Assembly (NCBI RefSeq): GCF_050920415.1
Contig: NZ_CP169309.1
DNA: 64,000 bases
Reading direction: 5' to 3' (one strand)
Source: Escherichia coli
GTDB lineage: Bacteria; Pseudomonadota; Gammaproteobacteria; Enterobacterales; Enterobacteriaceae
Below are positions 48,956-52,865 of the stretch, one piece after another. The position numbers and the translations under genes were made by a program. A model generated the notes under the pieces. That model ran no database searches, was not told the origin of the DNA, and worked only from the letters and a program-made list of their open reading frames with translations. Within the stretch, counting starts at the first letter, position 1; the number at the start of each line of letters is the position of its first letter.

Positions 48956-50566
48956 TTACATTTGATCAAACGAAAGACGCCGACGAGCACGGGATGCAGG
49001 CTTTACGACCGCCTGAGCCATCGCCTCACCAATTTCTGCACATGCCGTAAGTCCCTGTACGAATGGCCGGTCGTGCATCAACCAGGGCAACGCGCCGAAC
49101 GCTACGCGCCCACGAATTTCTTCGGGTTGCTGTAGCGTATAATCTTCGCCAACATCAGGGATTTCATCCCCTGTTTTCTGTAATTGTTCGCGTAGTCCAG
49201 GGAAAGGAATATCTTTCACTTTAAGCGGACGCTGCCCGCGGGCATCAATAAAAACGTCAAACGAGTAGCTATCGTCTTCCGTTTTCAGGACGGTGCGCGA
49301 CTCATTAATTTCCATTTCGTAGTCTTCACCGAGGGCGAGAATATGAATGATTCCCGCTTCACGTAAGGCCAGTAGTCGACGAATAGACTCTGAAGGGATT
49401 GCCGCATAATTATCGATGAAAACCCGGGCAAGGCCTTTACTGAACCGTTTATGGTCGTGTTCATTCAGATGAGGAACAATTTCCTGTACGGCTTCATGCA
49501 GGCGCAGAATGACATAACGCCAGGGAACAGTATGTTTTTCTCGTTTATTGCGTTCGACTTCCTGGAGATTTTTTTCTGCCCAGTCGAATGGGTCGCGTTG
49601 TTTGCGCTCGGCAAACCAGGCTTGAGCAAAGGAATCGACATTCAGGCTCTCTAAGGCTATGCGTTGGCTCCAGTCTGGATCAGCAAATTTGATTTCCTCT
49701 ACTATTAATTCGAATACTCGATCCAAAAGGCCCTCTTCGCCTTTTTGAATCTCCGCATTTAATGCCTGTTCAGTGACGATGTGTAAGGGCTCGTAGGGAA
49801 TAGGGCAATAGAAATCGGCTTCGGGTAAAATACCCGTGCGCGACATCAACGTAATATTTAGCTTTTCACTTGCGTTATCGCGGTGAAAAACGACGTGTTG
49901 TTTATCATCTTCAATGAACGAACCATGCTGAATAGCCACTGCCATTGCCGCATCCAGTCCGCTCAAGGATGTTCCCATAATACCCACGTTACACGCATCG
50001 ACCTTTGCTTCCATCAGGCCTGACCACGGGCTGGGAAAATACGTTCTGGTTGCTTCTTCTTCATCAGGCCAGACGTGACCCGTCGCGATCACCGCTAAAT
50101 CAAACGTCTCGCTGGGTAAATCCTGATTTGTAGCGAGCATGACGCCAGCATTTATAATTTGCAGATCGGTAACCTGGCATGATTCATAAACAGCCACTGC
50201 AAATTTTTGCTGTCGTGCCTGGTCTACTAATCGTAAAAATTGATCGCGGAAATATTCGCCCAGCAGAATTCGCGGTAAAAACTGGCGATCGTGCAAGGTT
50301 TCTTTTTTAACGCCATAACGCTGGAGATGGCTGGCTTCTTGCTTTTGTAGCCATTCGAGATACGTACAATAAATCGGCGGTATTTCAATACTGGCAATAT
50401 TTGCCAGCATCAGTTTTGAGTTTTCCTCATCACTGTATGGCATCCCGACACCGGCTTCGTCAGCCTGCTCGAAGATAGAAATAGAAAGTGGAGTTTGTTG
50501 CTGTAGAAGCGAGAATAAGGTGTAGATCCCCGTAGGCCCGGCACCCACAATAGCAATTTTTTTCAT
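48956..50566 (-). CDS. ydhS: FAD/NAD(P)-binding protein YdhS
   Basis: 536 aa, N-terminal Rossmann motif IAIVGAGPTG. Confidence 0.88.
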   Translation of the reverse strand: MKKIAIVGAGPTGIYTLFSLLQQQTPLSISIFEQADEAGVGMPYSDEENSKLMLANIASIEIPPIYCTYLEWLQKQEASHLQRYGVKKETLHDRQFLPRILLGEYFRDQFLRLVDQARQQKFAVAVYESCQVTDLQIINAGVMLATNQDLPSETFDLAVIATGHVWPDEEEATRTYFPSPWSGLMEAKVDACNVGIMGTSLSGLDAAMAVAIQHGSFIEDDKQHVVFHRDNASEKLNITLMSRTGILPEADFYCPIPYEPLHIVTEQALNAEIQKGEEGLLDRVFELIVEEIKFADPDWSQRIALESLNVDSFAQAWFAERKQRDPFDWAEKNLQEVERNKREKHTVPWRYVILRLHEAVQEIVPHLNEHDHKRFSKGLARVFIDNYAAIPSESIRRLLALREAGIIHILALGEDYEMEINESRTVLKTEDDSYSFDVFIDARGQRPLKVKDIPFPGLREQLQKTGDEIPDVGEDYTLQQPEEIRGRVAFGALPWLMHDRPFVQGLTACAEIGEAMAQAVVKPASRARRRLSFDQM

Positions 50567-50691: not shown

Positions 50692-50997
50692 TCAGGCGAG
50701 TTTTGCCTGATTGATTTGACTCAGTGGCTCATTGACATCGAAAACTTTGGCGACAACTTCCTCAACGCCGAGATTTTTCAGTCGGGCAGTATGTTTTTCC
50801 AGATAGGCAAGGGCGCTTTTTTCATCAGTGAAAAGGTAGATCCCACCGGCTTCGTGGTTCTTTTCACTTTCTGTCCATACCTTCCACAGAAAACCAGGTT
50901 CCTGATTAATTGACTCAGCAAGCGGTTTAAGCTGCTCAGCCATTGCGTCGCCAAATGGGCCATTAAAAGCAAAATGAAGTTGTAACAAAGTTGCCAT
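50692..50997 (-). CDS. ydhR: Small dimeric alpha/beta-barrel (putative monooxygenase) protein YdhR
   Basis: 101 aa, ATG 50997, [16 protein letters not shown]. Confidence 0.85.
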
Positions 50998-51104
50998 AGC
51001 GATTCTCCTTCTGATAACGCATACGAAGACAGTGTAAATCTTTTAACGTATTGGATACAGAGAAGAAACAGAGGGAAAAAGGAGAAGACCAGATTAAGAA
51101 AATC

Positions 51105-51181
51105 TGGTGCGTCCGAGTGGACTCGAACCACCGACCCCCACCATGTCAAGGTGGTGCTCTAACCAACTGAGCTACGGACGC
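51105..51181 (-). tRNA. valW: tRNA-Val (anticodon GAC), downstream copy
   Basis: Reverse complement GCGTCCGTAGCTCAGTTGGTTAGAGCACCACCTTGACATGGTGGGGGTCGGTGGTTCGAGTCCACTCGGACGCACCA folds as tRNA with anticodon GAC and encoded CCA; valV/valW names assigned by position only. Confidence 0.95.
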
Positions 51182-51185
51182 AGGA

Positions 51186-51262
51186 TGGTGCGTTCAATTG
51201 GACTCGAACCAACGACCCCCACCATGTCAAGGTGGTGCTCTAACCAACTGAGCTATGAACGC
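51186..51262 (-). tRNA. valV: tRNA-Val (anticodon GAC), upstream copy
   Basis: Reverse complement GCGTTCATAGCTCAGTTGGTTAGAGCACCACCTTGACATGGTGGGGGTCGTTGGTTCGAGTCCAATTGAACGCACCA; 4-nt spacer to the second copy. Confidence 0.95.
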
Positions 51263-51568
51263 AACGTTGTAGGTGACAACGGGGACGAATATTAGCGGCA
51301 GAGTGGGAAGGTGGCAAGAGGCAAAACGTATTTTTCTGCGGTATTTCGACCGTTTGCAGAGCTTTTAAGCAAATTGGCTATATTTTGTTGATTTGCAAGG
51401 GCGATTTTTATTCAGGATCGCATTTACATCTGACACAACCCAATAATCTTTATCAGAGTTTAAACAGAGTTGTTTGCCACCATCTCAAAATCTGTCGTGG
51501 ATAAATCCTCCGTAGCCTTTACACTTAGGTAGCAATAAAGGCACACAGATGCAGCAAAGGAATAAATC

Positions 51569-52825
51569 ATGGGATCTGATGCGAAAAACTTGATGAGCGA
51601 CGGGAACGTGCAAATTGTTAAGACCGGCGAGGTCATTGGCGCGACGCAACTTACTGAAGGTGAGTTAATTGTTGAAGCTGGCGCAAGAGCCGAAAATACC
51701 GTGGTCACGGGGGCCGGTTGGTTGAAAGTGGCAACCGGTGGGATCGCCAAATGCACACAGTACGGCAACAATGGCACGCTATCGGTCAGTGACGGTGCCA
51801 TTGCCACAGATATTGTTCAGTCAGAGGGAGGCGCAATTAGTCTCTCTACGCTCGCTACGGTTAATGGCCGCCATCCAGAAGGTAAATTTAGCGTTGATCA
51901 AGGTTATGCCTGCGGTTTGTTGCTGGAAAATGGCGGTAACCTGCGTGTACTGGAAGGCCATCGCGCGGAAAAAATCATTCTCGATCAAGAGGGCGGCCTG
52001 TTGGTCAATGGGACAACCTCAGCGGTCGTGGTAGATGAAGGTGGTGAATTGTTGGTGTATCCAGGTGGGGAAGCCAGCAATTGTGAGATTAATCAGGGCG
52101 GCGTTTTTATGCTGGCGGGGAAAGCCAGTGATACATTGCTTGCTGGTGGCACCATGAATAATCTCGGTGGTGAAGACTCTAACACTATTGTTGAGAATGG
52201 AGCCATTTATCGTCTGGGGACGGATGGCCTTCAGCTCTATAGTTCCGGTAAGACGCAAAACCTGTCCGTTAATGTGGGTGGTCGGGCTGAAGTGCATGCT
52301 GGTGCGCTGGAAAACGCGGTAATACAAGGTGGGACAGTGATCTTGTTGTCACCCACCAGCGCGGACGAAAATTTTGTCGTAGAGGAAGATCGCGCACCGG
52401 TTGAACTGACCGGGAGTGTTGCATTACTGGACGGCGCTTCAATGATTATTGGCTATGGCGCAGATCTGCAACAATCATCGATTACTGTACAGCAGGGCGG
52501 TGTGTTGATTTTCGATGGCAGCACGGTAAAAGGTGACAGTGTCACTTTCAATATTGGTAACATCAATCTGAATGGTGGAAAACTGTGGCTGATCACTGAT
52601 GCGGCAACGCATGTGCAACTGAAAGTGAAACACCTGCGCGGAGAGGGAGCGATTTGCCTGCAAACCAGTGCGAAAGAAATTTCACCTGACTTCATCAATG
52701 TGAAAGGGGAAGTTAACGGTGATATACACGTTGAGATAACCGATGCCAGTCGGCAAACTCTGTGTAACGCACTGAAACTACAGCCAGACGAAGACGGGAT
52801 TGGCGCAACGCTCCAGCCTGCGTAA
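51569..52825 (+). CDS. ydhQ: Autotransporter-passenger-like protein lacking signal peptide and beta-barrel
   Basis: 418 aa Gly/Asn/Thr-rich beta-helix-like repeats; no N-terminal signal sequence and no C-terminal translocator. Confidence 0.88.
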   Translation: MGSDAKNLMSDGNVQIVKTGEVIGATQLTEGELIVEAGARAENTVVTGAGWLKVATGGIAKCTQYGNNGTLSVSDGAIATDIVQSEGGAISLSTLATVNGRHPEGKFSVDQGYACGLLLENGGNLRVLEGHRAEKIILDQEGGLLVNGTTSAVVVDEGGELLVYPGGEASNCEINQGGVFMLAGKASDTLLAGGTMNNLGGEDSNTIVENGAIYRLGTDGLQLYSSGKTQNLSVNVGGRAEVHAGALENAVIQGGTVILLSPTSADENFVVEEDRAPVELTGSVALLDGASMIIGYGADLQQSSITVQQGGVLIFDGSTVKGDSVTFNIGNINLNGGKLWLITDAATHVQLKVKHLRGEGAICLQTSAKEISPDFINVKGEVNGDIHVEITDASRQTLCNALKLQPDEDGIGATLQPA

Positions 52826-52831
52826 AAACAC

Positions 52832-52865
52832 AGGCGCAACCCGTGAAGGTTGCGCCTTGTCTTTA

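Follow-up and report, generated by a model that had tools for sequence, protein, structure and literature searches.

Among the described relatives of the protein considered here, Ag43 (PDB 4kh3, 7koh, 7ko9, 7kob), TibA (PDB 4q1q) and AIDA-I are surface adhesins of the self-associating autotransporter (SAAT) type, which feature an extended signal peptide, a complete autochaperone, an alpha-helical linker and a 12-stranded barrel. Their passengers share approximately 20-30% overall identity with YdhQ of Escherichia coli, a protein without such a signal peptide, linker or barrel and apparently without a complete autochaperone, whose gene was analyzed on a stretch of 64,000 nucleotides (contig NZ_CP169309.1 of assembly GCF_050920415.1), referred to as the window and numbered from its first letter. 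The gene ydhQ, the AIDA-repeat nature of its product and the missing signal peptide are already known, the last of these from PMC13101318. New are the conservation and selection across the genus, a map of the truncation relative to YejO and Ag43, the lack of barrel or leader debris and an empty locus in Citrobacter. YdhQ is interpreted as an autotransporter passenger which has been kept as a cytoplasmic, stress-induced beta-helix and would act by binding of partners, a reading to which we assign a probability of about 0.6. Homology, fold, missing export modules, conservation and selection were derived from this analysis; sigma-32 control, expression and cytosolic location are taken from published work. 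YdhQ belongs to the remaining uncharacterised genes of E. coli K-12 and is routinely handled as a dispensable neutral locus. Nonetheless, ydhQ counts among the core genes of the genus, featuring clear purifying selection and the assignment of a heat-shock promoter.

The open reading frame (ORF; 51569-52825, plus strand) encodes 418 amino acids (aa) followed by a TAA stop and starts with MGSDAKNLMSDG, and both the frame and the N-terminus named in a preliminary description of this DNA agree exactly with the ORF list. The protein matches the YdhQ equivalog NF007409 of NCBIfam with 928 bits (cut-off 830), residues 1-418 corresponding to profile positions 1-418. The K-12 orthologue (NF007409/PRK09945), annotated in RefSeq as 'ydhQ, AIDA repeat-containing protein', is the same gene and represents the common E. 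coli form, with 96% identity at the protein and about 97% at the DNA level.

According to the preliminary description, YdhQ is built of Gly/Asn/Thr-rich beta-helix repeats of the AIDA/pertactin type. The compositional part of this statement holds clearly for glycine (14.8%) and only moderately for asparagine (6.2%) and threonine (7.2%); the structural part was substantiated by several profiles and by modeling. In Pfam, the AIDA family PF16168 matches five stretches of YdhQ (E 6.5e-29, 100 bits versus a cut-off of 27), and the strand-loop-strand repeat TIGR04415 matches two (43.6 bits, cut-off 30); the AIDA-type repeats are far above chance level. A further Pfam match, to the Pertactin family PF03212, lies at aa 330-403 (E 7.6e-6, 26.3 bits versus a cut-off of 22). 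By sequence, YdhQ matches the structurally solved Ag43 and TibA passengers; E-values went down to 1e-26 when the single sequence was searched and to 8e-30 when an orthologue profile was used. An AlphaFold2 model built from 23 sequences reached a mean predicted local distance difference test score (pLDDT) of 90.1 and a predicted template modeling score (pTM) of 0.87, is all-beta without any helix of four or more residues, and was linked to Ag43 and TibA by Foldseek with a probability of 1.0. The fold of YdhQ is a right-handed beta-helix of the AIDA/SAAT passenger type. The last 137 aa, searched separately against PDB sequences, had no match. YdhQ is acidic overall (50 D/E versus 24 K/R), and one acidic loop (aa 261-280) is conserved in 17 of 20 residues among 10 orthologues down to 70% identity. 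Within this loop, the pLDDT falls below 50 at aa 263-275, and the loop is seven residues longer than its counterpart in the YejO-type segment.

When 1.84 billion representatives were searched exhaustively with HMMER, 463 relatives of YdhQ were found. Identities above 50% were confined to YdhQ and fragments of it, the next match featuring 38%; most of the other relatives are long (about 900 to 6000 aa), and the checked ones carry AIDA repeats. The only relative colinear over nearly all of YdhQ is P0090, a YejO-type autotransporter encoded between narP and yejM, i.e., at the yejO locus. YdhQ aa 2-392 aligns to aa 72-486 of P0090 with 28% identity, with AIDA repeats being followed by a Pertactin segment in both proteins. 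In P0090, the Pertactin domain is complete (profile positions 2-120 of 121), and a barrel (PF03797) follows, whereas YdhQ covers positions 2-78 of the same profile and ends 15 residues later. By this comparison, the last hairpin of the Pertactin domain is apparently missing, and the autochaperone profile PF18883 had no match in YdhQ. Likewise, Ag43 aa 252-605 correspond to YdhQ aa 26-380. Thus, both alignments characterize YdhQ as a passenger minus its leader and first rungs, which, judged from the alignments, appears to end inside the autochaperone segment and not to reach its last hairpin, the linker or the barrel. In this way, the truncation points which the preliminary description proposed to detect by alignments to full-length autotransporters could be mapped, and YdhQ is clearly homologous to passengers of the AIDA/Ag43/TibA/YejO type.

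The export modules of such proteins were searched for at both ends of the gene. The N-terminus of YdhQ lacks a hydrophobic core, the maximal Kyte-Doolittle mean being 1.25 (11-residue window, first 60 residues), and residues 1-12 contain one K/R and two D/E. The extended signal peptide region (ESPR; PF13018) had no Pfam match in YdhQ, unlike the relatives P0029 and P0085, in which it is present. Across eight lineages, 1-34 codons lie in frame ahead of the ydhQ ATG, and in none do they encode a hydrophobic or leader-like stretch; five of the lineages feature an in-frame stop two codons upstream of the start, and the longest open stretch (34 codons, one lineage) is not hydrophobic. In the window, the TAA at this position closes off an N-terminal extension. 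No remnant of a leader was detected in the ydhQ flanks by tblastn with the N-terminus of Ag43, and SignalP 6.0 predicted no signal peptide for YdhQ (PMC13101318). Accordingly, hydropathy, the upstream survey and SignalP bear out the earlier statement that a hydrophobic signal sequence is lacking.

The equally claimed lack of a translocator domain was confirmed as well. The beta-barrel PF03797 had no Pfam match in YdhQ, and tblastn with four autotransporter barrels found nothing in the ydhQ flanks nor anywhere in the 64-kb window in any frame. A terminator hairpin with a GC-rich stem of 10-11 bp and T-runs on both strands starts 6 nt past the TAA and occupies the mere 40 nt between the stops of ydhQ and the convergent mdtK (52866); an equivalent hairpin follows the ydhQ stop in all eight lineages. 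Neither an altered start nor an altered stop brought to light a cryptic signal peptide or barrel, a finding which had been named beforehand as one of those that would speak against the preliminary description. Among the features of a classical type Va autotransporter, YdhQ thus displays the beta-helical passenger and neither signal peptide nor barrel. The label 'leaderless autotransporter' (PMC13101318) is therefore a misnomer, since leader and barrel are both lacking.

The truncated form is widespread and well preserved. A search of genome contigs for ydhQ found five loci, all in Escherichia, and among 5426 complete E. coli genomes ydhQ is present in 5425 (5424 at a coverage of at least 80%). 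YdhQ has 418 aa with the same first and last residues in E. coli/Shigella, E. ruysiae, E. marmotae, E. whittamii, E. albertii and further clades; a lineage at 70% identity, whose mdtK is 83% identical to that of the window (E. albertii mdtK, 87%), encodes a form of 419 aa. The positions of start, stop and terminator are identical across the ydhQ lineages, synteny is kept, and neither frameshifts nor internal stops occur in eight lineages. The Nei-Gojobori ratio of nonsynonymous to synonymous divergence (dN/dS) amounts to 0.07-0.15 in every pair, with dS reaching about 1 versus E. albertii and more than 1.7 versus the most distant lineage (upper values of about 1-2.5). Bootstrap 95% intervals of dN/dS range from 0.08 to 0.16 for E. 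albertii and from 0.07 to 0.29 within E. coli, all of them below 0.3. Of the neighboring genes, mdtK and cfa show stronger constraint (0.012-0.019), and ydhS is similar to ydhQ (0.07-0.15). Thus, the intact frame and the purifying selection across Escherichia identify ydhQ as a working gene and not as a decaying remnant.

Conservation also extends to the beginning of the gene. The first eight residues (MGSDAKNL) are almost invariant and disordered in the model, and the synonymous sites of their codons are conserved too, which suggests a constraint on RNA or translation initiation rather than a peptide signal. A search of the 5' untranslated region for a structured leader or known RNA gave a folding z-score of 0.52 and no relevant match in Rfam. 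The allele of the window is rare. With positions 51296-52865 as query, 6 of 5425 genomes reached an identity of 99% or more, and almost all of the rest, including K-12, were at about 97%; dS between the window and K-12 is 0.093.

Table 1. Positions of ydhQ and of associated features in the window.
Feature	Position	Strand	Basis
ydhQ coding sequence, 418 aa + TAA	51569..52825	+	ORF list; NF007409; RefSeq K-12 annotation; dN/dS 0.07-0.15 in frame
AIDA-repeat beta-helix body, ~aa 7-259; best conserved at ~aa 76-135, including VNGRHPEG and LLLENGGNLRVLEGHRAEK	51587..52345	+	
Conserved acidic loop, aa 261-280 (SPTSADENFVVEEDRAPVEL), between repeats and C-terminal segment	52349..52408	+	17/20 residues invariant
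Apparently truncated pertactin-type autochaperone/junction segment, aa 330-403	52556..52777	+	Pfam PF03212
Bidirectional intrinsic terminator hairpin common to convergent ydhQ and mdtK	52832..52857	.	terminator scan
Shine-Dalgarno AAGGA (51557-51561, 8 nt upstream of start) and in-frame TAA (51563-51565)	51557..51565	+	read from sequence
Candidate sigma-32-type promoter: GTTTAAA, 13-nt spacer, CACCATCT (51478-51485)	51458..51485	+	12/15 consensus positions

The sigma-32 consensus consists of TTGAAA, a spacer and CCCCATnT. The site resembling it upstream of ydhQ (Table 1) is identical in K-12, and equal scores were reached in 19 of 420 random windows of 300 nt (4.5%). Most Escherichia lineages retain its -10-like element but not its -35-like element, so that the site is put forward as a candidate only. 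The attribution of ydhQ to the heat-shock regulon comes from the literature. The RpoH regulon list includes ydhQ (PMC2710865), and an independent re-examination gave a sigma-32 chromatin immunoprecipitation (ChIP) signal of 1.4 at the gene, reporting as well that ydhQ had been found as a sigma-32 target earlier by ChIP-chip and other methods (PMC2996942). Moreover, ydhQ co-varies with the sigma-32 genes ycjX, ycjF, yciS and yhdN (PMC2868799). An FlhDC peak, obtained by genomic systematic evolution of ligands by exponential enrichment (gSELEX), lies in the spacer between ydhQ and valV, and CsrA sites are predicted upstream of ydhQ. The protein was quantified in whole-cell proteomes (PMC6561319). 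The only localization experiment reported placed YdhQ fusions without a signal peptide in the cytosol, where they were fluorescent, and agarase fusions were inactive outside the cell (PMC13101318, published in 2026).

These data permit a proposal on origin and role of the protein. The ancestor of YdhQ would be the passenger domain of a type Va autotransporter (AIDA-I/Ag43/TibA/YejO type), of which the repeat helix and most of the autochaperone-like C-terminal segment would have been kept. As neither a Sec signal peptide nor an outer-membrane barrel is present, it should be unable to secrete itself and remain in the cytoplasm, where folding would be possible. The truncated form probably predates the divergence of the known Escherichia lineages and has been held by purifying selection since then. 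If ydhQ is transcribed under the heat-shock factor sigma-32, as the literature indicates, the rigid helix could serve as a binding scaffold under proteotoxic stress, with one partner or several in the cytoplasm. The contact might be made via the face with the highest conservation (~aa 76-135) and via the acidic loop, for which a function as binding site is conceivable. Of the two options offered by the preliminary description, a cytoplasmic beta-helix of different function is favored by the conserved architecture, a dN/dS of about 0.1 and, from the literature, the sigma-32 regulon and the cytosolic location. The option of an autotransporter remnant holds with respect to ancestry, given the passenger homology and the end within the autochaperone segment, and fails with respect to decay, given the purifying selection and the missing debris.

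A more specific version, according to which the passenger was co-opted inside the cell and the sigma-32-induced protein binds specific partners in heat or proteotoxic stress, is tentative. The co-purification of YdhQ with EF-Tu (PMC2672614) and its naming among the uncharacterised RNA-binding proteins of an RNA-interactome study (bioRxiv 2023.07.03.547468) hint at the translation machinery or RNA as partners. If this version is true, YdhQ would be the first example of this adhesin fold with an intracellular function and would demonstrate that a helix with an autochaperone is able to fold when it is not secreted vectorially. The broader cytoplasmic reading, if true, would likewise make YdhQ a natural example of how a module of outer-membrane adhesins is reused inside the cell and a ready system to study the folding of autotransporter beta-helices without secretion.

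Several points weigh against a cytoplasmic, partner-binding YdhQ. EF-Tu is a common contaminant of co-purifications. By sequence, the sigma-32 promoter assignment is weak, and the -35 element is not conserved. Deletion of ydhQ serves as a neutral control in T7 infection, and the gene as a neutral integration site. Surface display of YdhQ as an 'anchor scaffold' was reported after addition of a signal peptide (PMC13101318). Without a barrel, such a display follows no known mechanism; leakage or lysis may be responsible. The same paper does not address the missing beta-barrel. Caution is advised here, as the autotransporter label and the use as surface-display anchor rest on a protein without a translocator domain. 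The remaining adverse points concern exposure to the outside: ydhQ is needed for early adhesion according to a secondary source (PMC9110714, citing Roux et al., 2005), YDHQ appears in a list of COG3468 proteins of vesicle proteomes, and positive selection was reported at some sites of ydhQ, a pattern more typical of exposed proteins.

The latter three points equally favor the strongest of the rival explanations, namely that YdhQ is an extracellular adhesin which leaves the cell by a non-classical route (lysis, vesicles, the barrel of another autotransporter or an unrecognised N-terminal signal) and binds cells or surfaces like the passengers of Ag43 and TibA. In addition, its fold is the self-associating adhesin fold, the FlhDC peak lies within its upstream spacer, and the invariant, disordered MGSDAKNL terminus could be an export signal. 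However, cytoplasmic proteins are common contaminants of vesicle preparations, and the conservation of the N-terminal codons includes synonymous sites, unlike that of a peptide signal. The protein features neither signal peptide nor barrel, and the leaderless fusions stayed in the cytosol, with agarase being inactive outside (PMC13101318). Moreover, the sigma-32 control fits a cytoplasmic role better than an adhesin role. Altogether, the extracellular route appears unlikely.

Far less probable is a functionless relic, i.e., a fragment of an ancestral autotransporter which has not yet decayed. Such a view could draw on the fact that YdhQ is an excerpt of a larger architecture, without leader, autochaperone end, linker and barrel, and that no laboratory phenotype has been reported for a ydhQ deletion. 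It is opposed by the low dN/dS at saturating dS, by intact frames with fixed start, stop and terminator positions in eight lineages, by the presence of the gene in all but one of the complete E. coli genomes and by the expression of the protein. Likewise, the flanks contain no leader or barrel debris, and no autotransporter is found at the corresponding locus of Citrobacter sedlakii. The relic reading is effectively refuted. A misannotation, in which another start, a frameshift or stop read-through restores signal peptide and/or barrel, can be rejected as next to impossible, as nothing was found in its favor and the sequence refutes it by upstream stops in five of eight lineages, a 34-codon stretch which is not hydrophobic, a terminator past the stop and no barrel in any frame.

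With regard to the origin of the gene, the neighborhood is informative in one outgroup. In the window, ydhS and ydhR (minus strand) and two tRNA-Val(GAC) genes (51105-51262, minus strand) are followed by ydhQ (plus), mdtK (minus), ribC/ribE (plus) and cfa (minus), and the neighbors of ydhQ in K-12 are the same (ydhS, ydhR, valV/valW, mdtK, ribE, cfa). In C. sedlakii (L014, 2771-7000), mdtK is followed after 152 bp by two tRNA-Val genes; ydhQ is absent from this locus, tblastn found no trace of it, and no autotransporter occupies its position. Thus, either the Escherichia lineage acquired ydhQ by insertion between mdtK and the valVW promoter, or Citrobacter lost it, a conclusion which is provisional given the single informative outgroup. 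In C. rodentium and Raoultella, ydhR is located elsewhere, and these loci are uninformative on the origin of ydhQ. The GC content at ydhQ is about 50%, similar to the surrounding genome, and PADLOC, applied with respect to a defense system, had no match. Between the tRNA genes and ydhR, C. sedlakii carries four extra genes absent in E. coli (HSP20, TauE, a LysR-type regulator and an MscS-type channel). Escherichia sp. MOD1-EC7003 (L001; 5287-5536, 7300-7590) has no ydhR in the interval from ydhS to the two tRNA-Val genes, and an unrelated ORF (MKIFITDQQKAELERLHDSSRDGRVRDRIK...), which we take to resemble an IS630-family transposase, lies directly past the ydhQ terminator in place of mdtK.

Further observations concern the region upstream of ydhQ. 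A block of about 140 bp (51274-51410), situated just 5' of valW/valV, hardly varies among all the Escherichia lineages, the most distant one included, and the alignment with L001-L006 shows weaker conservation in the part of the spacer next to ydhQ; the block presumably represents the promoter of the tRNA operon with UP and Fis-type sites. A match to RF02194 ('HPnc0260 bacterial antisense RNA') at 50981-51143 on the plus strand (112 bits versus a gathering score of 59, E 1.2e-15) runs antisense to the first tRNA-Val gene and the 5' end of ydhR and is probably a tRNA-antisense artefact of that Rfam family. Finally, YdhS of the window (48956-50566, minus strand) comprises 536 aa and ends in ...SFDQM, whereas the gene is two codons shorter in K-12 and other Escherichia lineages (534 aa, ending in ...SFD).
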